In this document: piece after piece, positions 36,008 through 45,257 of the stretch
How positions within the stretch are numbered: position 1 is the stretch's first letter
Layout: every line of letters begins with the position of its first letter
Assembly: GCA_041167305.1 (NCBI GenBank)
Contig: JBEEHI010000138.1
Location: 1 to 55,134 of the forward strand
Direction: 5' to 3'
From: Verrucomicrobiota bacterium
GTDB lineage: Bacteria; Verrucomicrobiota; Verrucomicrobiia; Chthoniobacterales; UBA10450
Length of the DNA stretch: 55,134 bases
Made by a program: the position numbers and the translations under genes
The notes under the pieces: generated by a model
What the model was told of the DNA's origin: nothing
The model's input: only the letters and a program-made list of their open reading frames with translations
The model's database searches: none

Positions 36008-36046
36008 TCCTAAGTCTGGCGCGTCTGCCAATTTCGCCACCCTGGC
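36008..36046 (-). pseudogene. 5' fragment of tRNA-Leu (anticodon TAG): acceptor 5' arm, D-arm, 5' anticodon stem and loop only
   Basis: The reverse complement reads GCCAGGG-TG-GCG-AAATTGGCAGA-CGC-G-CCAGA-CTTAGGA, matching the bacterial tRNA-Leu 5' half. The expected TCTGG 3' stem, variable arm, T-arm and acceptor 3' strand are absent. Confidence 0.7.
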
Positions 36047-36123: not shown

Positions 36124-37164
36124 TCAGCCCCGCGGGTGCGCGAAGATTGCAAACGTGGCCGTCGCGAAAATCGCGGGAAAGATCAGTCGGCAACAACGGT
36201 CAATTGTTTTCGCCAGGCGCGCGCGATGATTTGTCTCCAGAATTGTCGTCGTTATCACCTCGATGAGAGAAAAGAAGATGAGGACCGTCCCCATCAGAAT
36301 GAACCCATCCAGCCGCGTCATGTAAGGCAGACGAGGCAGTTGGTTGTCGGTGGCGAAACGATAGGCAATCAGGGTGAGCATTGAAGTGACCGCGATGTTA
36401 ATCTGCGCGCTGGAATGGATTGGATCCATCCAGAAGACCGCCCATGACATGATCACGATCAAAACAAGCGGAAACATTACTTTTAGAATGTAATGCGATA
36501 CATTGCGGGCTGCAGTGAATTCGAAGGCGTAACTGGAATACTGATGGCCCGGTGTCAGCGCATAGAGGAGCGGCTTGAGCTCCCATTTTTCTATGGTCCA
36601 ATCCGGCAGCGTAACTGTGGCGGCGATCCCGCCAGCCCCTTTAAATCCCTCCTGAATCCAAACCTGATCCGGGATGAATATTACTTCGTCGGACTGATAC
36701 CGAACCGCGACCAGCTGAACACGAAAAGTTTGCCGATCGAATGGGAACGATTGTAATCGCAAAGGCTGCGTGAAAGCCCCGACGTAACGTTGCCGATCAG
36801 TGACCGTGCCATCGGGATCGACTTCGACAGAGTCCGGCATTTTGCGGCTGACGGAATTTGTCTCATTCACAATCCCAACGCGCGGATGCCAAATCTGTTC
36901 GAGCGGGTAGCGCACAACTCCGTTGCCGGTGTGAACCAAACGAGGATCTTTCCAGCGCAACATGACAGCTATCTCCGCGGTGAACGTCTGTTGGGCGCTG
37001 TCGATACTACTGATATCGGCGACCCACATTCCGACCGAGATTTCGGTTGGGCCGGAGTCGGCGTTTGGCCGATCAATTAACGGAGGCGTTTCTGCACTGC
37101 TCGCCAGCTGGATCGACCTCACCAGAATGCTGACGACCAATGCCGAACAGAATCTCCTATTCAT
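36124..37164 (-). CDS. prokaryotic pentameric ligand-gated ion channel (Cys-loop receptor superfamily, GLIC/ELIC-like)
   Basis: 346 aa. Signal peptide. MLRWKDPRL, FPFDRQTFRVQL, M1-M2 YILKVMFPLVLIVIMSWAVFWMDP, and four TM segments. Confidence 0.85.
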   Translation of the reverse strand: MNRRFCSALVVSILVRSIQLASSAETPPLIDRPNADSGPTEISVGMWVADISSIDSAQQTFTAEIAVMLRWKDPRLVHTGNGVVRYPLEQIWHPRVGIVNETNSVSRKMPDSVEVDPDGTVTDRQRYVGAFTQPLRLQSFPFDRQTFRVQLVAVRYQSDEVIFIPDQVWIQEGFKGAGGIAATVTLPDWTIEKWELKPLLYALTPGHQYSSYAFEFTAARNVSHYILKVMFPLVLIVIMSWAVFWMDPIHSSAQINIAVTSMLTLIAYRFATDNQLPRLPYMTRLDGFILMGTVLIFFSLIEVITTTILETNHRARLAKTIDRCCRLIFPAIFATATFAIFAHPRG

Positions 37165-38788
37165 TGGAATGACCGAGATTCCTTTTCAAGATTCGCGCGA
37201 CTTCCCGAATGGCTTGCGGGTTGTACTGCGCTCCGTGATCTGAATTGACGATCAACTCCGAGCGCGCCCCCTCGAGGTGAGAGCTCCAGTATGGAACTAC
37301 ACCATCGGAACTGTTGGGTGTGTCGCCCCGGCCGCGGTCTCCCATGATCGAATGATAAGGAATAACCGGCGTAATCGGCACCTTGTTGACCGCTTGCACG
37401 AATCGATCGTTGGGTTCGAGCGTATCGACGCTATTCGGCATGCGATTAAGCCGCCGGGCCGCGGGATCGGTAATCAGAAGTGGCTTCGTCGAAGTGTAGA
37501 TTGATGTGAGGAACCGTGGAGTCCTGACGAAAGAGGCTCCGATGCGACCGATCCAACCCGAAGCGAGTTTGCTGCCGCGATGCGGCGTCGAGATGAAGAT
37601 TGCGCTCTCAACATCCGGGCGATGATTAAACACCAAAGTCTGTTCGAGAAGTTTGCGCGTGTCGCTCGCGAGTGGTGTTTTGGCTGGCGGCGTCGAAAAA
37701 TAATCCCGCCAGATTTTGTCGCCGGCGTCGGTGATCATTAACCGGCAGATCAGCCCGCCCATGCTGTGACCGATTAGGACGACTCGTTTGTGGTTGGGGA
37801 ACGCGCGCTTCACTCCGTCGAGCTCGCGCCGGAATAGCGCAGCCGAATAAGGGTAGGGATAACCGCTCGGATAGCTGAAAAACCAAAACTGATAATGTTC
37901 TCTTATCCAAGGATCATTGCGGAGCGTGTCGACCATTGGGGCCCAACTCGCGCCTGTTTCCTGCAAGCCGTGAACAAAAATCACCGGCGTCCGTGCGGGA
38001 TCGTACGGCTGCAGCTGATACAACCGTGCGGTGTCCGCGTACTTTTCCGGATTGAGCACGCGTGACAATCCGAGCCGCTCCGGCCGCTCACGCGCGATTA
38101 ACATTGCTGTCGGCGCGATAAGATCGCCAGCCAACGGAAAATTGCGTTTGCCTAGAGCAACTCGCTCCGACTTCATCGGATCGACAAAATCGAGTTCTGC
38201 GTTGGGGCCGGAGAATCGTATTGTTGCCGTGACCGGTGCGTAAACTCGCGGCAGCTTGTACTCTCGATGAAACCCCGGATTTTCTGAGCGAGCGACCGCA
38301 ACCAAAGGTGCGCCAAATCCGTTAATGGAAGAGCGCGTTTTGAAAAATTGCCCGCTGATCTTCAAACTGTCTGTCGGAAACAAATCGTGTCGACTCGGAT
38401 CGTGTTCCGGATCGAGAGGCTTGGGACTAGTGAGCAAGAAACTTCCTTGATTGAATGGGACATTGATCGCCTTGCGCCAGGGCTGCAGGTTCGCGCGCCC
38501 CACGTTTTCGACTGCGCGCGCAACAGAGAAGTTATAAATGCTTTGTGCCGACGAGTCGCTCGGCCGTCGTTCGAGCACGCTGAGCGATAACTTCGCGACC
38601 GAGAGATCGTTGCCCAGTGCGATCAACGGTTGTTCGCGTTCCGCGGCACTCAACTTTCGGGTTGCGACCGCAAGTTGTTCATCGCTCGCGGCAATCGTGG
38701 GAACGTGCGGCTCTGTCGTTTTCACCGTCGCGAGATGCGCACATCCGCAGAGAACCAATCCGCTGAACGCTAAGATCGACAGTTTCAT
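37157..38788 (-). CDS. alpha/beta-hydrolase lipoprotein (lipase/esterase-like)
   Basis: ATG 38788 (ATGA overlap with the FUSC stop). Lipobox LVLCGC. PVIFVHGLQETG and VVLIGHSMGGLI (GxSxG). Confidence 0.75.
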   Translation of the reverse strand: MKLSILAFSGLVLCGCAHLATVKTTEPHVPTIAASDEQLAVATRKLSAAEREQPLIALGNDLSVAKLSLSVLERRPSDSSAQSIYNFSVARAVENVGRANLQPWRKAINVPFNQGSFLLTSPKPLDPEHDPSRHDLFPTDSLKISGQFFKTRSSINGFGAPLVAVARSENPGFHREYKLPRVYAPVTATIRFSGPNAELDFVDPMKSERVALGKRNFPLAGDLIAPTAMLIARERPERLGLSRVLNPEKYADTARLYQLQPYDPARTPVIFVHGLQETGASWAPMVDTLRNDPWIREHYQFWFFSYPSGYPYPYSAALFRRELDGVKRAFPNHKRVVLIGHSMGGLICRLMITDAGDKIWRDYFSTPPAKTPLASDTRKLLEQTLVFNHRPDVESAIFISTPHRGSKLASGWIGRIGASFVRTPRFLTSIYTSTKPLLITDPAARRLNRMPNSVDTLEPNDRFVQAVNKVPITPVIPYHSIMGDRGRGDTPNSSDGVVPYWSSHLEGARSELIVNSDHGAQYNPQAIREVARILKRNLGHSNE

Positions 38789-39903
38789 TTTGCGTTTGCC
38801 GATTCGATTCGTTCGCGCTCGGGCCAAATGTATCGGAAGACGAATCCCGTGACGACGAGACCGAAGAGAATTCCAACGACACGATTGCGGACGTTATCGA
38901 GATCGGTATCGGGTGCGTAGCCTTGAAAGACGCTGTAAAAGAATGCGAACGCGATTTGGAAGCCGGCGTAGCTGGTCCGTTCGCTTCCGGTCGCAACCCA
39001 GCCCGCGATCGCAGTCGCACAAACAACAAGAACGACGAGCGACGCGATCGTCTCCATGTGCGGCGTGAGGAAAATGATGGAAGAAAGCGCGAGCGCTCCG
39101 CCGATCACGCACCCCACGATTCGCAGAGTGCCTTTGTAAAGCGTCGCCTTTGTGCTCTCCAGCGCGATGAATGTGCAGGTGATGAACGCCGTATGGATTC
39201 CCGTCCAATCGATCGACTCATAGACGATGTAGCAGAACATCGCGGCGAAAGTGACCTTAAGAGCGAAATGTAGGTGCGCCGGATTTGTGAATGCGTCCGG
39301 CACAAATAAACTATGCCCATCCGGTTCGGACTTTGGTTTGGGCAGTGCGGCGGTCTTCGGTGTGTCCGGCAAAAACAACAAGTTCAGCACGACGGTGACG
39401 GCGATGGCGTAGGCGATGGCTACCCAGAGCCATAGAAGGCCGCGAACCAATAGTTCGGGTGACCGAATCTCTTCGCCGACGGATTGGGAGATAGCCACAA
39501 CAAACCCGAGGAGGAATCCGAGTGGACCGATTACCAGGGCCCGCGACAACCACATTCCGAGAAACAGCGCGATTGCCATTCCGGGAATGCGCAATTCCGG
39601 ATGACCGTACGTGAACTTGTAAAGTAGAAGAGTGGCGCTAATGCCGACGGTCAGAACAATAATTCCACCGACCCCCGTAATTGTCGTGAGTAGCTTGCTC
39701 TCCTTCGAGATGAAGAAAACCATGTAGGCGCTTGTAGCCAGCTGCGGCACTTGGAGCGCCATCGAAATGATGACGCACAAAACCGCGCCGGCGACGATGA
39801 TGGCTGTTCGGATTTCGCGCGGGTGTGTCGGCGCCAGCTCGCTCTTTAACCAGCCGATCCAATTGGAATCAACCGCTTGGGGTTCTAGAAGTGTCGCGCT
39901 CAT
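38785..39903 (-). CDS. FUSC-family (AaeB-like) inner-membrane efflux protein
   Basis: ATG 39903, 4 nt after the HlyD stop. 372 aa multi-TM protein. ALKVTFAAMFCYIVYES...TLRIVGCVIGGALAL. Confidence 0.65.
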   Translation of the reverse strand: MSATLLEPQAVDSNWIGWLKSELAPTHPREIRTAIIVAGAVLCVIISMALQVPQLATSAYMVFFISKESKLLTTITGVGGIIVLTVGISATLLLYKFTYGHPELRIPGMAIALFLGMWLSRALVIGPLGFLLGFVVAISQSVGEEIRSPELLVRGLLWLWVAIAYAIAVTVVLNLLFLPDTPKTAALPKPKSEPDGHSLFVPDAFTNPAHLHFALKVTFAAMFCYIVYESIDWTGIHTAFITCTFIALESTKATLYKGTLRIVGCVIGGALALSSIIFLTPHMETIASLVVLVVCATAIAGWVATGSERTSYAGFQIAFAFFYSVFQGYAPDTDLDNVRNRVVGILFGLVVTGFVFRYIWPERERIESANAK

Positions 39904-39907
39904 GGAA

Positions 39908-40843
39908 TTATTTCCGAGGACCTTGGATGATCGCGACCGCGGACGCGCCCATGCGGAAGAGATCGACATCGGGATTTTGGACTTCGATGCGCACGGGGAA
40001 TCTTTGCGCTACGCGAACCCAGTTTAGTTCGCGCTTAACGTAAGGCACACCACCGGGTAGCAAGTCGATCTCGCCTTCGGGCTTCACGGCCCATCCGATT
40101 CCCTGCACTTTTCCATGAAAGCGTTGGTTAGGCACGGATGAGAGGTAGACAATCGCCTCGCTGCCCGGAGCCATATGTCGAACTTCCGCTTCGCGAAAAT
40201 TTGCGACCACGTACCATTTGCTCGTATCCAGCAACGAGAAGATGGGGACTCCGGCGGTAACATGAGCGCCGGCCGAAATGTTGAGATTGATGACACGTCC
40301 GGAAAAAGGCGCGATGACCTTGCAGTAGGAGAGATGGAGTTCCTCGAGGTTGATGGCCGCCACCGCGCCTTGCCGCTGAGCTTGTAGCGTTGTCTCTGCT
40401 GTTCGGGCTTTATCGACGATGTCGGCGGTAGTAAAGCCGTGGGGCAGGAGTGGCTCCAAGCGCTGCAGCGTGTCATGCGCTTGTGCAATCTGTTGATCCA
40501 GAGCGGCCAACTCAGCTTTAGCCTTTTCCAGGATGAGCCTGTAATCTTCCGGGTCGATTTCGAAAAGCACGTCGCCTTCTTTGACCGCCTGGTTATCCAG
40601 CGCATTCAGCTTGAGGATTTGCCCGCTCACACGCGGCGCAATTCCCACTACATTGGCGCGCGCAGTCGCATCATCCGTGCGCGGATTCCGTTCGATGATT
40701 CCCCACACGTAGAGAGTGATCAGCACCGCGCTGGCCACGATGATCAGACTGACGATCTTGCGAGCGAACTTGTGGTGCTCAATGCCGATTTTCGCTGAGG
40801 TCGAGACGCTCTCTTCGTTTGAAGGTGTGGCGGGTTGATGCAT
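39908..40843 (-). CDS. HlyD-family membrane fusion protein (AaeA-like)
   Basis: ATG 40843. One TM segment, then ARANVVGIAPRVSGQILKLNALDNQAVKEGDVLFEIDPEDY, a coiled coil and a beta-barrel. Confidence 0.8.
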   Translation of the reverse strand: MHQPATPSNEESVSTSAKIGIEHHKFARKIVSLIIVASAVLITLYVWGIIERNPRTDDATARANVVGIAPRVSGQILKLNALDNQAVKEGDVLFEIDPEDYRLILEKAKAELAALDQQIAQAHDTLQRLEPLLPHGFTTADIVDKARTAETTLQAQRQGAVAAINLEELHLSYCKVIAPFSGRVINLNISAGAHVTAGVPIFSLLDTSKWYVVANFREAEVRHMAPGSEAIVYLSSVPNQRFHGKVQGIGWAVKPEGEIDLLPGGVPYVKRELNWVRVAQRFPVRIEVQNPDVDLFRMGASAVAIIQGPRK

Positions 40844-40844
40844 G

Positions 40845-41138
40845 TCAGTTCTGGTAAAACAAAATCCAGCTCGCGAAGGTGAAGATGATCGCCAGAGACG
40901 AATAGATGAGCGGCGCCGGGCCAAGGTACGGTTTTAGGTTGCCCACCTGGACAATCCAACGGGCGATGAGCGTTAGCGTCAGTCCGCTGACGATGCAGAC
41001 CATCCAGGCCGGAAAATAAGAGCCGAGAACATCGACAGTCGGCGAGCGGAAACTCACCAAGCGCGACGCGCCGAAAAGGAGGACGAGCAGCACGAACCCA
41101 CCGGCGACAAATTTCGGAAATGTTCGATGCGTTTTCAT
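40845..41138 (-). CDS. DUF1656/AaeX-like small membrane protein
   Basis: 97 aa with 2-3 TM segments, located between the TolC-like and HlyD genes as in aaeXAB-type operons. Confidence 0.55.
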   Translation of the reverse strand: MKTHRTFPKFVAGGFVLLVLLFGASRLVSFRSPTVDVLGSYFPAWMVCIVSGLTLTLIARWIVQVGNLKPYLGPAPLIYSSLAIIFTFASWILFYQN

Positions 41139-42655
41139 CGTTCCAATGGTCTGACGGCCCCAGGTCGCAGCGGTCGGGAGGATGGCCGCGCCAGGTCGCC
41201 GGTGCTCAAGGCGAGCGCAGCTGCGCTGGTAAAAATTGTGGACTGGGTGTCGTGGCTCACACTTCGCGCGGCCGCCAGGTTTCGCTGCGCACTAACGATC
41301 TCGGGATAGGTGCCGAGCCCGTTCTTGTAGGATTCCAAGACCGCGTCGAAGGCATTTTGCGATGCCGTGACCAGCTTGGCGGCGGAATCCTGTTTGCGGA
41401 GCGCGGTCTTGAAATCCGTGTAGGCCTTCCAAACTTCGCGCACGGCGGAGTCGCGCGCGCCGGCGAGCTCGTTCTGGGCGCCGCGAAATTCGGCCTCGGC
41501 CATTTCCATTTTGTGACGGCGACCGAAACCGTCGAAGATCGGCACGTTGACAGTCAGAAAGGCGCCGAACGTTGGCTTGCGGTCCCCGAAATATTTGGAC
41601 CCGGCGATGCTAACATCGAGCTCGGTCTCGCTCACGTGCGCGTCGATGGCGACTTTCGGATAATACTCCGCGCGCACTCGTCGAATTTCGTTCTGCTTCG
41701 CGTGCACGTTTGCGAGCTTTGCCACCAGGTCGGGCCGCTGCGACAGTGCTCGGCCGATTAGTTCATCGACCGAACCGTTTGTTTGCTCCGAGGTCGATCG
41801 TTGTCCGAGGTCGACCACGTTCAGCGGCACAGTTGGCAACGCTCCGATGCTCTCCACTAACGCCACCCGTGCGTCGCTCTCCAAGCCGGTCGCTGCTTCA
41901 ACGTCGAATGCGGATTGCGCGCTTTGCTGTTGCGCCTGGAGCAGCTCGGGCTTGGTCGCGAGCCCATTGTCAACGCGCGCCTGCACCGCTTGCTCGACTG
42001 TTTGCGCGGCTTCCAGCGCGCTCCGCGCCACGAGGACTTTTTGGCGAGCGGTCCCGAGTTGATAAAAACGCTCCGTTACCTGGAAAACGATTTTCTGATG
42101 AGTGGCGTTGAAGCCCACATTCGCCATCATCAATTGTTCTCTGGCCGACGCGACCACCGCGCTTCGTTCGCCGAAATCGAGCAACAACCATTTCGCGCTC
42201 AACTCTCCGCGGTAAACCTGAGACTCGGTGACAAGCGAGCTACCACCGGTAACCGATACCGCGCCGAGACTCGGGAGTTTCTTTTGATCCACCGCCAAGG
42301 TGGGGAACGGAATGAAAGCGCGGTCGTAACCTGCGGCAGCAGACGCGACGATGAATGGATAGTAGGCGCTTTCACTCAACCCGACCGCCGCTGCCGCGTG
42401 TCGCGCGCGTTCCCAGGCCACGCGGGTTTCTGGGTTGTTGCGCTCGGCGACGTCGATCAACTCGGCGAGGTTGTAGACTTTTCGCGGATTGATCGTCAGC
42501 CGCGAGGACCCAGCCTCACTTCCGCGGAGTTCGCGTTCGTAATTCGGAAGATTCGGTGGTGCCCAAGCTCTCTCAGAGCTTGGCGGGGGATCATTCCGCG
42601 CAGTCGCGACTGCGAATGCCAGAAACAATTGCAGGAGTGAGACGCGCGCAACCAT
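41135..42655 (-). CDS. TolC-family outer-membrane efflux protein
   Basis: 506 aa. Signal peptide. Two repeated alpha/beta halves (LAELIDVAERNNPETRVAWE...; LDELIGRALSQRPDLVAK...). Confidence 0.8.
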   Translation of the reverse strand: MVARVSLLQLFLAFAVATARNDPPPSSERAWAPPNLPNYERELRGSEAGSSRLTINPRKVYNLAELIDVAERNNPETRVAWERARHAAAAVGLSESAYYPFIVASAAAGYDRAFIPFPTLAVDQKKLPSLGAVSVTGGSSLVTESQVYRGELSAKWLLLDFGERSAVVASAREQLMMANVGFNATHQKIVFQVTERFYQLGTARQKVLVARSALEAAQTVEQAVQARVDNGLATKPELLQAQQQSAQSAFDVEAATGLESDARVALVESIGALPTVPLNVVDLGQRSTSEQTNGSVDELIGRALSQRPDLVAKLANVHAKQNEIRRVRAEYYPKVAIDAHVSETELDVSIAGSKYFGDRKPTFGAFLTVNVPIFDGFGRRHKMEMAEAEFRGAQNELAGARDSAVREVWKAYTDFKTALRKQDSAAKLVTASQNAFDAVLESYKNGLGTYPEIVSAQRNLAAARSVSHDTQSTIFTSAAALALSTGDLARPSSRPLRPGAVRPLER

Positions 42656-42667
42656 CGTTGATTTCTC

Positions 42668-43747
42668 CTACGCTGCTTGTGGAATGAGGACGGTGGTCGA
42701 AAGCTGTCGTGGCGCCGATCTCCAGCGGCTCTGCGCTTCTCCGGCCTGAAGTTTCTCCGTTATCGCCGCAACGTGCGCCTTGATGATTCGATCGCACGCG
42801 GTCAACTCCCGCTTACGAGCCTGAACACCCTGCCGAGCCACTGCCTCCAGATCATCTATATTAAATAGAGAAACGTGATCGAGTCCGGTCACATCCGGAT
42901 CGATGTTACGCGGCACGGACAGATCGATGAGCAGCAGCGGGCGATTCCGCCGTGCCTTCATTAGATTCTCGATATCGTCGCAACTCAACAAGGTCTTAGC
43001 GCTGCTCGTCGCAGCGACGACAACGTCGACCTTGCGCATTTCAAAAAGGCAATAACCGAAACAGACCGCGTTTCCGCCGCATCGGTTAGCCAGATCGATT
43101 GCGCGATCGAAGGAGCGACTCGAAACGAAGATCGAGCGGACACCTTTGCGGACCAGCGATTGGACGCAGCGTTCAGCCATATCGCCGGCGCCGATTACCA
43201 TTACTGATTTGTCGGCGAGCTCGTCGCTGAAAGCTTTCTCGATCAACTCAATCGCGGTGCTCTTAATTGAAACTGTGCCGCGACCGATTGCTGTGCGCGT
43301 GCGAATCTCCTTGGCCGCCTGAAAAGCTCTTTGGAACAAACGGTTCAATACTGGCCCGGTCAGTCTGGCTTCACGCGCAGTCTCATAAGCATTCTTGATC
43401 TGGCCGGTGATTTCGGTTTCGCCGAGCGTCATCGAATCCAATCCGGCCGTGACTTTAAATAAGTGACGCGCGGCCTCGGCGTCCCTGTGAACATAGATAT
43501 ATGGATCTAAATCGATCGGCTCGGAGGACAGGAGTTTCAGAGCCGACTTAATGCGATCGATCGACTGTTGCGTCGTTCCGTAAATTTCGACGCGATTGCA
43601 GGTTGAAAGCAGGACCACTTCATCTAAATGGCGAAACCACTTCAGATAGTGCGCAACATCGACCAGTTCGTTGCGTTGCACCGCCAGTTGCTCGCGAACT
43701 TCCACCGGCGCGGTTTTGTGACTGATTCCCGCGACGAAGAATTTCAT
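42668..43747 (-). CDS. hemA: glutamyl-tRNA reductase
   Basis: MKFFVAGISHKTAPVEVREQL...LSTCNRVEIY...VIGAGDMAE. At 359 aa it has a short C-terminus. Confidence 0.85.
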   Translation of the reverse strand: MKFFVAGISHKTAPVEVREQLAVQRNELVDVAHYLKWFRHLDEVVLLSTCNRVEIYGTTQQSIDRIKSALKLLSSEPIDLDPYIYVHRDAEAARHLFKVTAGLDSMTLGETEITGQIKNAYETAREARLTGPVLNRLFQRAFQAAKEIRTRTAIGRGTVSIKSTAIELIEKAFSDELADKSVMVIGAGDMAERCVQSLVRKGVRSIFVSSRSFDRAIDLANRCGGNAVCFGYCLFEMRKVDVVVAATSSAKTLLSCDDIENLMKARRNRPLLLIDLSVPRNIDPDVTGLDHVSLFNIDDLEAVARQGVQARKRELTACDRIIKAHVAAITEKLQAGEAQSRWRSAPRQLSTTVLIPQAA

Positions 43748-43748
43748 A

Positions 43749-45143
43749 TCAATTCCTCAAAATAGATGCAGAGGTGAGAGGTTGCGGCGCTCGGTCATTC
43801 GCGACCACTATTGGTGGCGCTGCCGGATTAGCTTCGGATTCGTGATAATTCACGATCAACCGCGAACCGCGGTGTCCGGTCAGGAACAACCAGCCCCATT
43901 GTAAGAAGACGCTGACCTTCAAACTAAGCTGAGCGAGAAAAGTGATGTGAATGAAAGCCCAGCCGAGCCACACGATGAGACCGTGCAGCCGAAGTTTACC
44001 GCTCTGAAGAACTCCGTAACCCTTGCCCACGACAGCCATGGTGCCTTTGTCGAAATAGCGAAACGGTTTTGGCGCCTTCTTGCCGGCAAGTTGGCGGCAA
44101 ATCAGTTTGCCAGCGTAGCGTCCTTGTTGCATTGCAACCTGAGCGACTCCCGCCAGCGGTTTCCCGTCCTGGTCGAGCGAGGCCGTATCGCCGATCACGA
44201 AAATTTCCGGATACTTTGGAACTCGAAGATCGGGTTGAATGCGAACGCGACCAGCGCGATCGGTCTCCACCCCTAACCATTTTCCGGCAGGGGAAGGCGT
44301 GACACCGGCGGTCCAGATCACTGTCTTGCTCGCAATTCGCTCGCCTGCGACAATGACTCCTTCGCTGTCGATCTTCTCAACGGCGTGGCCCAGGTGGACT
44401 TCAACTCCCAGCTTTTGCAGATGGGACTCCACTGCCTCAGACAGACTCGGGGCAAAAGTGCCAAGGACGTTTCGAGCCGCATCGATCAAAACAATTCGTG
44501 CTGAACTCGGATCGATCCGGCGGAATTCGGAACGTAATGACGTTCGAACGAAAATAGCGAGCGCCGCCGCCATCTCGACGCCGGTTGGTCCGGCCCCGAC
44601 CAAAACGAAGGTCAACAAATCGCGGTGAAGATCGACATTTTCTTCGGCCTCGGCCTGTTCAAACGCGCTGAGGATTTTGTTCCGGATACCGACGGCATCG
44701 GCCACGCTTTTCAAGCCCGGAGCAAACTTTTCAAATTCGTTGTGTCCGAAATAACTGTGACGCGCCCCGGTGGCGAGAATGAGGTAGTCGTAAGGCACCG
44801 GCACCTGCTCGCGATCCGCATTGTTTACAAAAACGCAGCGTTGCGCTTTATCCACCCCCGTGACCTCGCCCATGATCACCGTTGTGTTTTTATGTCTTCG
44901 CAATACTTCACGAATTGGCGAACTCATCTGCGACGGCGCGAGGACTGAGGTAGCTACCTGGTAAAGAAGCGGCTGAAAAACATGATGGTTCGTCCGGTCA
45001 ATGAGAATGACTTCGACCGGCGTTTTCCCAAGGGCTTTGGCCGCAGCCAGACCACCAAAACCGCCGCCGACGATCACCACCCGCGGCGTCTTCGACGTCT
45101 GCGCATCCGCGCCATTGATAGAATTGAGATTCGAATCGTTCAT
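43749..45143 (-). CDS. ndh: type II NADH dehydrogenase (NDH-2)
   Basis: PRVVIVGGGFGGLAAAKAL, LVGAGPTGVEMA, and a C-terminal membrane-anchoring helix. Confidence 0.85.
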   Translation of the reverse strand: MNDSNLNSINGADAQTSKTPRVVIVGGGFGGLAAAKALGKTPVEVILIDRTNHHVFQPLLYQVATSVLAPSQMSSPIREVLRRHKNTTVIMGEVTGVDKAQRCVFVNNADREQVPVPYDYLILATGARHSYFGHNEFEKFAPGLKSVADAVGIRNKILSAFEQAEAEENVDLHRDLLTFVLVGAGPTGVEMAAALAIFVRTSLRSEFRRIDPSSARIVLIDAARNVLGTFAPSLSEAVESHLQKLGVEVHLGHAVEKIDSEGVIVAGERIASKTVIWTAGVTPSPAGKWLGVETDRAGRVRIQPDLRVPKYPEIFVIGDTASLDQDGKPLAGVAQVAMQQGRYAGKLICRQLAGKKAPKPFRYFDKGTMAVVGKGYGVLQSGKLRLHGLIVWLGWAFIHITFLAQLSLKVSVFLQWGWLFLTGHRGSRLIVNYHESEANPAAPPIVVANDRAPQPLTSASILRN

Positions 45144-45149
45144 TCACTC

Positions 45150-45181
45150 CTTTCTCAAGCTTTCGAGCCCCGAAATTTCAG
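45150..45181 (-). promoter_or_regulatory. conserved 32-nt leader motif, copy A (CTGAAATTTCGGGGCTCGAAAGCTTGAGAAAG), 6 nt upstream of the ndh ATG
   Basis: Read directly. 28/32 identical to copy C and 27/32 to copy B. Confidence 0.7.
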
Positions 45182-45257
45182 AGAATCTTGTTTTTCTCGC
45201 AGACCGTGATGGTCAGTTCAGCGGTACGTGTTTAGCTGCGAACAGACGGCCGCCTTA

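Follow-up and report, generated by a model that had tools for sequence, protein, structure and literature searches.

GLIC, the proton-gated pentameric ligand-gated ion channel (pLGIC) of Gloeobacter violaceus (PDB 3eam, 4hfi), depends for proton sensing or cation selection on a Glu at position -2' (the selectivity filter), on His11' in M2 and on Glu35, and we know of no enzyme partner for it. The operon of the p-hydroxybenzoate exporter AaeXAB is, to our knowledge, devoid of a dedicated outer-membrane factor (OMF). The E. coli pump MdtNOP (alias SdsRQP) makes the cell resistant to pyrrolomycin and armeniaspirol, both protonophores, and lipophilic weak acids are substrates of FUSC/MdtO pumps (PMC8672772). 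The gene beside that of ELIC encodes a putative amino-acid decarboxylase, and the products of this enzyme act as ELIC agonists (Zimmermann and Dutzler 2011, PMC3119659). The neighbours of bacterial pLGICs listed by Tasneem et al. 2004 comprise only PBP-II, Cache and a Na+/H+ symporter (PMC549065), and no literature report was found of a pLGIC associated with the cluster described here.

The window analysed is a stretch of 55,134 nucleotides from an uncultured soil Verrucomicrobium. Six minus-strand open reading frames at 36124-42655 are all present and intact, and their junctions, read from the sequence, agree with the earlier description of genes joined by overlaps or by gaps of at most 4 nt. 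The stop and start codons overlap in ATGA at the OMF/YtcA (41135-41138) and FUSC_2/HYD (38785-38788) junctions. The TGA stop of the YtcA gene is separated by 1 base from the ATG of the adaptor gene (40845/40843), the TAA stop of the latter by 4 nt from the ATG of the FUSC_2 gene (39908/39903), and the TAG stop of the hydrolase gene (HYD) lies 8 nt inside the pLGIC reading frame (37157-37164). The cluster is translationally coupled. The packing extends 5' of the OMF, with 1 nt between the ndh stop and the hemA-like gene and 12 nt between the hemA-like stop and the OMF. Since these two genes are tightly packed as well, the start given to the cluster by the sequence-only reading cuts a probable eight-gene unit. 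We infer that all eight genes, from ndh to pLGIC, are probably co-transcribed, in the order NDH-2 paralog, short HemA-like paralog, OMF, YtcA, MdtN-like adaptor, compact MdtO-like permease, HYD and pLGIC. The first of them encodes a type II NADH dehydrogenase (NDH-2) paralog of 464 aa (43749..45143, minus; Pyr_redox_2, E 3e-51), which is retained 5' of the pump with 73-88% identity in five relatives (L012, L027, L036, L153, L154). The second (42668..43747, minus) encodes a glutamyl-tRNA reductase-like paralog of 359 aa with GlutR_N and Shikimate_DH matches, which retains the catalytic STCNR and is devoid of the C-terminal domain, its TIGR01035 match spanning model positions 2-339 of 416. Another hemA, 42% identical and with a 499-aa open frame, is located on contig G000:C182.

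This transcription unit is probably headed by TCTGAAAT-N-AAGCTTGAGAAAG (45138..45190, minus), a motif resembling a promoter or leader that ends 5 nt upstream of the start codon of ndh. Three copies occur in the window, where the motif also heads a CoA-transferase unit and a YWTD-propeller unit, and the interval from ndh to the pLGIC stop contains none. The first gene behind the motif is whichever unit is there: ndh in L012, L027, L036, L037, L153 and L154, the OMF in L011, which is devoid of ndh-hemA, and HYD where HYD-pLGIC stands apart from the pump (L016/17, L031, L033, L048). Across 35.5-45.5 kb no sigma-70-like promoter was found, and terminator-like matches (9) were fewer than in shuffled sequences (12.4). 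A tRNA-Leu(TAG) gene reduced to its 5' half (36008..36046, minus) marks the downstream boundary, and here the GC content drops from ~0.61 to ~0.55; ARAGORN reported no tRNA in the window. In L049 the same 34 nt form part of an intact tRNA-Leu(TAG) that follows the pLGIC at a distance of ~390 nt, and in L048 they are again found as a fragment.

The sequence-only reading had taken the small membrane protein for DUF1656 and the pump for an AaeXAB-type system. Both assignments were revised. The protein (97 aa, 40845..41138, minus) belongs to the YtcA family according to Pfam (PF17090, E 2.7e-18) and shows 34% identity to E. coli YtcA, and the pump is therefore MdtNOP/YtcA-like rather than AaeXAB-like; Pfam, NCBIfam and the E. 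coli comparisons all point to a YtcA-MdtN-MdtO-OMF type. The TolC/NodT-like OMF (506 aa, 41135..42655, minus) displays two PF02321 OEP matches (E 1.4e-48) and matches TIGR01844 and TIGR01845 under their cut-offs. The periplasmic adaptor, or membrane fusion protein (311 aa, 39908..40843, minus; HlyD_D23, HlyD_3, Biotin_lipoyl_2), has MdtN as its top NCBIfam match (E 1.4e-84, 283.9 bits for a cut-off of 376), ahead of EmrA/EmrK and of AaeA (145.9 bits). The permease (372 aa, 38785..39903, minus; FUSC_2, E 3e-9) matches the MdtO model with E 3e-79 and 267 bits for a cut-off of 821. BLASTP aligned its residues 16-179 and 203-364 to residues 15-179 and 343-505 of E. coli MdtO (683 aa), so that the two membrane bundles are retained and the two cytoplasmic domains are missing. 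The locus thus has in common with ytcA-mdtN-mdtO-mdtP the YtcA protein, an MdtN-like adaptor, the MdtO membrane bundles and an OMF, and a hydrolase gene, that of the alkylsulfatase YjcS, lies directly upstream in E. coli too. It differs in that the OMF comes first in the gene order, the permease is shorter, no score reaches its NCBIfam equivalog cut-off, two genes (HYD and pLGIC) are added at the end, and ndh and the hemA-like gene are found upstream. AaeXAB likewise combines a FUSC-family permease, a HlyD-type adaptor and a small membrane protein, the latter being AaeX/DUF1656 instead of YtcA.

HYD (543 aa, 37157..38788, minus) bears out the alpha/beta hydrolase with a lipobox proposed earlier. 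An uncharacterised N-terminal domain (~residues 20-260) is followed by a lipase-like alpha/beta-hydrolase domain (Pfam Abhydrolase_6/_1/PGAP1, residues 265-530). In an alignment of 18 homologs the lipobox Cys16 is almost invariant, and the triad Ser342 (GHSMGG), Asp495 and His518 is invariant, which indicates that catalysis is under selection. In the AlphaFold model (pLDDT 83) the top PDB fold matches are true bacterial lipases of family I: BlEst2 (6wpx/6wpy; TM 0.67 on target for 6wpy), A. baumannii LipA (9g8u), S. aureus SAL2 (8s9r) and the P. aeruginosa lipase 1ex9. The C-terminal domain matches them with Foldseek E values of 4e-9 to 1e-7 and a probability of 1.0 and displays the Ser-Asp-His triad and GHSMGG elbow, although sequence identity is just 13-17% and HYD differs from these enzymes in being a lipoprotein with an extra domain of ~240 residues. 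This N-terminal domain is confidently folded in the model (pLDDT 82) and, searched alone, gave no significant PDB fold match.

The last gene encodes a pLGIC homolog of 346 aa (36124..37164, minus; PF02931 Neur_chan_LBD and PF02932 Neur_chan_memb) with a signal peptide, an FPFDRQ Pro-loop and four TM helices. Its alignment to GLIC over the full length (E 2e-34) upholds the earlier description as GLIC/ELIC-like. The two proteins share the signal peptide, the beta-sandwich ligand-binding domain, the FPFD Pro-loop, the four TM helices, a short M3-M4 loop and the 9' Leu in M2. The -2' Glu, M2 His11' and Glu35 of GLIC are replaced by Ser, Leu and Gln, respectively, and GLIC-type proton gating and cation selectivity can therefore not be assumed.

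Unbiased clustering of the neighbours at 84 pLGIC loci placed HYD as the most frequent (32 loci), before HlyD, FUSC_2, OMF and YtcA. In the close clade of the pLGIC tree, HYD lies beside the channel or within 6 kb of it in 22 of the 30 assessable loci (18 with HYD adjacent, 3 with an adjacent HYD truncated by the contig end and 1 with HYD within 6 kb). The sister clade has such linkage in 6 of 16 loci, and of the 8 loci beyond both clades 1 has it; these counts are not phylogenetically independent, and a single old linkage with vertical inheritance would give much of the pattern. L073 is linked too, outside the tree. HYD remnants occur in two further close-clade loci, and 6 pLGIC loci of the close clade and 10 of the sister clade have no HYD next to the channel. 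The hydrolase is found upstream of the channel (L059, L073) or downstream (L074, L075, L078, L068), and in L046, L068, L077 and L091 it lies 2.5-3.3 kb away with genes in between. Of the 14 genomes compared in which HYD is not next to the channel, ~10 carry a full-length HYD of 44-80% identity elsewhere, at times on the channel's contig 10-90 kb off; in the phylum sample, just 3 of the 400 other genomes give matches at this level. Of 401 genomes of the phylum, 124 carry a member of the HYD family as a whole and just 7 this pLGIC type, which implies a role of HYD independent of the channel. One 23-row clade of the HYD tree (SH-aLRT 89) holds 19 of the 20 linked HYDs, and the 43 rows outside are all unlinked except L077; the linkage label needs 4 changes, versus 17.3 in shuffles. 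Full-length conservation including the N-terminal domain marks this linked subfamily, four members of which belong to genomes without such a channel (G039, G044, G058, G140). The groupings of the HYD and pLGIC trees are mostly concordant (L059 with L091; L074 with L068). All genomes are MAGs, with frameshifts in some long-read assemblies, e.g. L031, L033, L051 and L154.

As to synteny in other genomes, the whole cluster has stayed together in many species-level MAGs from soil Chthoniobacterales and Udaeobacter-like bacteria (L011, L012, L027, L030, L036, L037, L039, L049, L053). The pump link is limited to a Udaeobacter-like subclade of the channel tree and runs through HYD. Other genes split the pump from HYD-pLGIC in L016/17, L029, L031 and L033, ndh-hemA-pump-HYD ends without a channel in G454 and G455, as does pump-HYD in G466, and HYD stays at the pump operon even where the channel is 44-90 kb off. 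Distant lineages carry HYD-pLGIC and no pump. The conserved partner of the channel is thus the hydrolase and not the pump, whose coupling to it is optional and clade-specific. The HYD-pLGIC pair is the deep link and, in our best reading, the functional core for the channel.

The explanation of the whole that we prefer, tentatively and at somewhat less than even confidence, is a mosaic operon built on this core, in which HYD would control a ligand or modulator of the channel. Both proteins are predicted to face the periplasm, are coupled in translation and are retained together across Verrucomicrobiota. As a putative periplasmic esterase, HYD would hydrolyse an ester, most likely amphiphilic or lipid-like, and thereby make or remove a small molecule acting on the channel as gating ligand or modulator, setting its level; the hydrolase product is a plausible ligand. 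Channel opening would alter the flux of ions and the membrane potential. The pair, or HYD alone, has become joined to an MdtNOP-type tripartite exporter in the Udaeobacter-like subclade, where ester hydrolysis, the pumping out of the acid product or of a toxic substrate, and the electrical response would be expressed jointly, as a single module for envelope or membrane stress. Gene content, coupling, synteny, co-occurrence and fold are what was observed; co-transcription, what HYD cleaves, what the channel binds and which way the effect runs are what we infer. The earlier option of the effluxed compound as ligand, taken here as an aromatic or lipophilic acid whose periplasmic accumulation the channel would report or relieve, draws on at least 10 species-level loci in which the channel gene closes the pump operon and on the weak-acid substrates of FUSC/MdtO pumps. 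It is weakened by the dispensability of the pump, whose link to the channel is confined to one subclade, is interrupted by inserted genes, and is absent wherever other families carry HYD-pLGIC; in the sister clade no efflux gene was found near the channel apart from stray HlyD-family matches. We consider it improbable.

Co-regulation only, in which all the genes would belong to one motif-marked stress regulon (redox, envelope or uncoupler) and be packed for joint expression, with hydrolase, pump and channel acting independently and sharing no small molecule, appears unlikely but has to be weighed more seriously. The motif heads many units, in the window and in relatives, the modules shuffle freely (pump-HYD without channel, HYD-pLGIC without pump, channel alone) and the HYD family is mainly found without the channel. 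Co-regulation in one clade leaves unexplained, however, the proximity of HYD and pLGIC in pump-less families and in either gene order, the separate linked-HYD subfamily co-diverging with the channel, and the overlap of the two genes, 8 nt in the window and 1-4 nt in L011, L012 and L059. A physical partnership, HYD being an auxiliary subunit, tether or assembly factor whose N-terminal domain docks on the periplasmic domain of the channel, with catalysis secondary, would suit the matched production suggested by translational coupling and the well-folded domain of no known relative that is conserved throughout the linked subfamily; we give it little credence, as the triad is invariant in 18 of 18 aligned homologs, genes separate HYD from the channel in four loci and HYD persists at the pump operon far from the channel. 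Fortuitous, functionally meaningless juxtaposition in compact genomes could be favoured by the compositional break beside the tRNA fragment, a rearrangement-prone site, and by the absence of the cluster from sampled same-genus genomes (channel in 0 of 36, FUSC_2 gene in 0 of 24). It is nevertheless very unlikely, given adjacency in many species and several families, in both orders, against a chance of ~0.001 per locus within 6 kb (estimated from ~0.35 HYD-family copies per ~3.5 Mb genome).

The recurrence of the enzyme-channel pair across the phylum offers a testable lead to what the bacterial relatives of nerve-cell channels sense. Control of a channel ligand or modulator by HYD, the explanation that we prefer, would follow the logic of ELIC beside its putative amino-acid decarboxylase, in which the neighbouring enzyme makes candidate agonists of a bacterial pLGIC. 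The present system differs from ELIC in that the enzyme is a predicted periplasmic lipoprotein esterase/lipase instead of a cytoplasmic decarboxylase, and in that the pairing of enzyme and channel is documented here in many genera.

Six intact open reading frames lie head to tail on the minus strand, as the sequence-only reading had proposed. They encode an OMF protein (42655-41135; 506 aa, two OEP domains in Pfam), a small YtcA protein (41138-40845; 97 aa, PF17090), an adaptor (40843-39908; 311 aa, HlyD_D23 and HlyD_3), a permease (39903-38785; 372 aa, FUSC_2), a predicted lipase-like lipoprotein, hereafter HYD (38788-37157; 543 aa, Abhydrolase_6, Abhydrolase_1 and PGAP1 at residues 265-530) and a predicted pentameric ligand-gated ion channel or pLGIC (37164-36124; 346 aa, Neur_chan_LBD and Neur_chan_memb). 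The junctions are exactly those described at the time, with ATGA overlaps at 41135-41138 and 38785-38788, gaps of 1 nt and 4 nt and an 8-nt overlap at 37157-37164. The close packing extends upstream, where the stop codon of a hemA-like gene lies 12 nt before the OMF gene and that of the NDH-2 gene (ndh) 1 nt before hemA. A promoter-like motif of 53 nt (45138..45190, minus strand) has its end 5 nt ahead of the start codon of ndh; the window contains three copies of it, with no copy between ndh and the channel stop codon. Scanning of the 35.5-45.5 kb interval returned no sigma-70-like promoter and fewer terminator-like sites than in shuffled sequences, none of them at gene junctions. The stretch of 176 nt that follows the pLGIC stop codon folds no better than shuffles (z -0.09) and an Rfam search of 35.5-45.6 kb at E 0.1 gave no RNA family. 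The cluster ends with a GC drop and the 5' half of a tRNA-Leu(TAG) gene (36008-36046, minus strand), the tRNA scan of the window reporting no tRNA gene and only a fragment. At the corresponding place in the homologous locus L049 (6334-6416) the tRNA gene is intact, and in L048 (4228-4261) it is again only a fragment; on the channel side, the cluster borders a point of tRNA-associated rearrangement. The junction between the cluster and the convergent PstB-phosphatase gene recurs in loci L016 and L017, and an assembly chimera is therefore not involved.

The description of the last gene as a GLIC-like channel is supported. The 346-aa protein is predicted from its sequence to be a member of the pLGIC superfamily: PF02931 is matched above the gathering score (E 1.2e-18) together with PF02932 (E 2e-13), and the alignment to GLIC covers the full length (E 2e-34), the ligand-binding domain, an extracellular beta-sandwich, being aligned to GLIC residues 10-190 and the whole running through M4 to residue 338. 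Four transmembrane helices are present, M2 reads QINIAVTSMLTLIAYRF with Leu at 9', and the translation contains the Pro-loop FPFDRQ, with F140, P141 and D143 invariant in alignment A1. Proton sensing and selectivity in GLIC involve residues E35, H235 (11') and E222 (-2'). The HMMER alignment places Gln, Leu and Ser at these positions, unlike GLIC; proton gating and cation selectivity are therefore not to be assumed. The -2' to 0' segment of M2, Ser-Ala-Gln, follows neither the cationic Glu nor the anionic Pro-Ala-Arg pattern.

HYD likewise displays the lipobox attributed to it earlier, within a signal peptide (MKLSILAFSGLVLCGC-A; at least 90% of 18 homologs keep Cys16), and its assignment to the alpha/beta hydrolases agrees with Abhydrolase_6, Abhydrolase_1 and PGAP1 matches that are all above Pfam cut-offs. 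The triad composed of S342 (in the G-x-S-x-G elbow, GHSMGG), D495 and H518 is invariant in 18 homologs. Sequence comparison with the PDB gave marginal matches only (BlEst2, E 0.002) and the NCBIfam models gave none. The AlphaFold model (pLDDT 83) retrieved BlEst2, LipA, SAL2 and PAL (Pseudomonas lipase) from the PDB at E 4e-9 to 1e-7 using Foldseek, with TM values against bacterial lipases of up to 0.67 on the target. As modelled, the fold is closest to bacterial true lipases and the protein is a predicted lipase-like enzyme. Its N-terminal domain of about 240 residues, modelled alone (pLDDT 82), had no significant Foldseek match in the PDB, the best being the FrsA N-terminal region (E 0.24).

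The pump had been assigned to the AaeXAB type of exporters and its 97-aa protein to DUF1656, as in AaeX. Neither assignment could be retained: this protein matches YtcA alone in Pfam (PF17090, 66.7 bits vs a cut-off of 28.8; 34% identity to E. coli YtcA), and the best NCBIfam match of the adaptor is MdtN (283.9 bits vs an equivalog cut-off of 376), with EmrA and AaeA scoring lower. Judged by these similarities, the pump is of the E. coli ytcA-mdtNOP type. The adaptor also passes the general RND_mfp model (134.5 bits vs 94.9), the OMF protein matches PF02321 with two repeats (165.6 bits) and the permease scores 267 bits against an MdtO model whose cut-off is 821. Since all scores are below the equivalog cut-offs, the pump genes are considered relatives and not orthologs. 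Residues 16-179 and 203-364 of the permease align to residues 15-179 and 343-505 of E. coli MdtO, which form both membrane bundles, whereas MdtO residues 180-342 and 506-683, corresponding to both cytoplasmic domains, are without counterpart. The permease is thus predicted to work like the MdtO core without being its equivalog. This minimal permease (38785-39903) counts 372 aa vs 683 aa in E. coli MdtO, and its size is conserved among relatives (364-377 aa).

Upstream of the pump, the HemA-like protein (42668-43747; 359 aa) retains the catalytic STCNR motif but has no C-terminal domain. Its gene is thereby a short paralog, a second hemA being present in the genome (G000:C182:1088-2089; 42% identity, 499-aa open frame), as are further paralogs of ndh. 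In L068 and in genome G300 (L022), too, a hemA homolog was observed at a distance of at most about 6 kb from the channel. Elsewhere in the window's genome (G000:C164, L108 8739-11694) a distant HYD paralog (33-35% identity) adjoins an NDH-2 paralog (32%), and likewise in G354 (L110), another genus of the same family; both pairs echo the layout from ndh to HYD.

All comparative data originate from MAGs, the window's genome being itself a 69%-complete MAG. Related loci are recorded as soil "Candidatus Udaeobacter", Chthoniobacterales or Verrucomicrobiota. No close channel ortholog was found among sampled same-genus genomes (0/36), nor any FUSC_2 match at E 1e-20 (0/24), and among 401 phylum genomes just 7 have the channel at E < 1e-20; the cluster is consequently accessory and patchy. 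Scanning with the channel alignment, using one genome per species, yielded 80 loci at 40-81% identity. The loci were searched with the window's proteins and the neighbouring ORFs were also clustered without prior labels, from which HYD emerged as the commonest channel neighbour (32 loci), followed by HlyD, FUSC_2, OMF and YtcA. Taken as a whole, the observation made by the sequence-only reading is confirmed and its interpretation supported in part only. The co-occurrence of pLGIC, FUSC, HlyD and hydrolase genes is kept as a block in close metagenomic homologs, but the pump is found beside the channel only inside the close, Udaeobacter-like clade of the channel tree.

Pump, HYD and channel modules separate in every possible way. 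Inserted genes lie between FUSC_2 and HYD in L016/17, L029, L031 and L033, where the HYD-pLGIC pair stays joined; it has its own motif copy in L016/17, L031 and L033, as in L048. The ndh-hemA-OMF-YtcA-adaptor-FUSC_2-HYD series of genomes G454 and G455 ends without a channel, and G466 keeps OMF to HYD with no ndh-hemA match in the 19 kb examined; the channel of these three genomes is located 44-275 kb away from the pump-HYD operon. Some channels stand alone. A divergent LysR gene and an aldehyde dehydrogenase-SnoaL fusion occupy the space between pump and HYD-pLGIC in L016 (5269-8229) and L048 (406-921). L048 is the only other locus where the fusion gene of this L016-type insert recurs at high identity, and for the LysR gene of the insert there are only weak matches of 31-43% elsewhere; the inserts of L029, L031 and L033 are different genes. 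In G051 (L018 10759-11643), HYD and the channel have a gene for a SnoaL/DUF4440 protein between them. Full-length HYD paralogs in tandem pairs (43-54% identity to the window's HYD) were observed at G454:C9 (L162 7543-12075) and G466:C5 (L163 2401-7430), in genomes that also carry the pump-HYD operon.

In counts that, like those from the HYD tree and from genomes given below, are not phylogenetically independent, HYD is beside the channel or within 6 kb at 22 of the 30 assessable loci of the close clade (18 adjacent, 3 adjacent but cut by a contig end, 1 within 6 kb), with HYD remnants at 2 more; at 6 of 16 in the sister clade, mostly other Verrucomicrobiota, plus L073, which is not in the tree; and at 1 of 8 outside both clades (L077). 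Relative to the channel, HYD has an upstream position in L059 and L073 and a downstream one in L074, L075, L078 and L068. In a tree of 66 HYD proteins, 19 of the 20 channel-linked members fall in one 23-row clade (SH-aLRT 89) and 42 of the 43 rows outside it are unlinked, the exception being L077; the linkage label changes 4 times vs 17.3 in shuffles. The groupings of the HYD and channel trees largely agree, which suggests long co-inheritance. The linked subfamily also has four members from genomes that lack the channel. In a comparison of 14 genomes where the channel has no adjacent HYD, about 10 encode a full-length HYD (44-80% identity) at another site; of the 400 other phylum genomes sampled, only 3 have matches of this level. 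Short HYD remnants upstream of intact channels were located in L026 (8382-8459), L034 (9854-9937) and L098 (2481-2561 and 8965-9183, a FUSC_2 remnant included), and indicate that HYD was lost secondarily while the channel was kept. More distant channels of the phylum, of at most 36% identity (G113, G363, G300, G303, G289, G157), have no HYD or pump neighbour, which restricts the linkage to a single clade of channels; an ATP-grasp/7TM-transglutaminase set and a Na+/H+ exchanger are among the neighbours that they do have. The contexts of the unlinked HYDs L106, L107 and L109 were not informative.

In lineages without the pump, other neighbours recur. At 7-8 loci of sister-clade Verrucomicrobiota (L059 6643-7401, L046 13622-14305, L018 7718-8704, L062, L064, L069, L079, L073), the gene directly downstream of the pLGIC encodes a small two-TM K+ channel (Ion_trans_2, TIGYGD filter). 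The order is HYD, pLGIC, K+ channel, Na+/H+ exchanger in L059 and pLGIC, TraB/GumN-family protein, bestrophin-like protein, HYD in L068. Lnb_N proteins adjoin HYD in L046 (12445-13515) and L077 (4439-5488); this periplasmic domain (PF13387, formerly DUF4105) was also seen beside HYD or the channel in L057, L071 and L078. Its recurrence hints at envelope lipid or lipoprotein chemistry. Together, these neighbours point to ion homeostasis and envelope lipid chemistry and not to drug export.

The analysis shows gene content, coupling, conservation and folds, and a mechanism can be proposed from them. HYD and the pLGIC's ligand-binding domain would both face the periplasm, and HYD would hydrolyse an ester, probably amphiphilic, so as to make or remove a molecule gating or modulating the channel. 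Tentatively, and with more doubt than confidence, we interpret the two proteins as an esterase-receptor pair following the acetylcholinesterase/nicotinic-receptor logic, in which the periplasmic hydrolase lipoprotein may make or destroy an ester-derived agonist or modulator of the pLGIC. Such a pair could sense membrane-active esters or the breakdown of lipids electrically; it would be connected to an MdtNOP-type pump in Udaeobacter-like bacteria and, in other lineages, to K+ channels, to a Na+/H+ exchanger or to a channel of the bestrophin-like kind. In the Udaeobacter-like clade the exporter would be attached to HYD with or without the channel; attachment behind respiratory paralogs and the shared promoter-like motif suggest one membrane-stress module.

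Co-regulation with no further link between the products ranks first among the rival explanations, and is to be weighed with the motif copies on one side and the overlapping genes and largely agreeing trees on the other. HYD could also be a physical partner of the channel, a rival placed second. Ranked third is the possibility, raised like that of a hydrolase product by the sequence-only reading, that the pump's substrate is the channel ligand: the two are joined in the close clade and the pump-less lineages keep the HYD linkage. Chance association comes last. The HYD family is found in 124 of 401 phylum genomes, about 0.35 per genome, which puts the chance that one lies no more than 6 kb from any particular gene at roughly 0.001 per locus.

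Bacterial pLGICs (GLIC, ELIC, sTeLIC, DeCLIC) are structural models for human neurotransmitter receptors and, to our knowledge, their natural ligands and cellular roles are largely unknown. With a conserved enzyme partner that co-diverges with the channel, the candidates for a native ligand narrow to what one lipase-like esterase takes as substrate or releases as product, and the chemistry of this concrete enzyme can guide the search. The cluster also displays a minimal MdtO-type permease without cytoplasmic domains, and joins an ion channel and respiratory paralogs (NDH-2 and a short protein like HemA) to export of the MdtNOP type. For "Candidatus Udaeobacter", soil bacteria that are abundant and tolerate antibiotics, it may hint at the way in which membrane-active compounds are dealt with.

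Each part of the cluster belongs to a known family. In the literature on pLGIC gene context, we found neither a lipase-like lipoprotein described as a partner nor a pump operon of the MdtNOP type with a pLGIC gene at its end. The contexts found comprise PBP-II, Cache and a Na+/H+ symporter (Tasneem et al. 2004, PMC549065), as well as the putative decarboxylase beside ELIC, a precedent for an enzyme neighbour supplying agonists (PMC3119659). Pyrrolomycin and armeniaspirol, both protonophores, are expelled by MdtNOP in E. coli (PMC8672772). A hydrolase gene, the alkylsulfatase yjcS, is located directly upstream of E. coli ytcA-mdtNOP (L152, K-12 4304612-4306597) and provides a loose parallel to the hydrolase joined to such a pump here.
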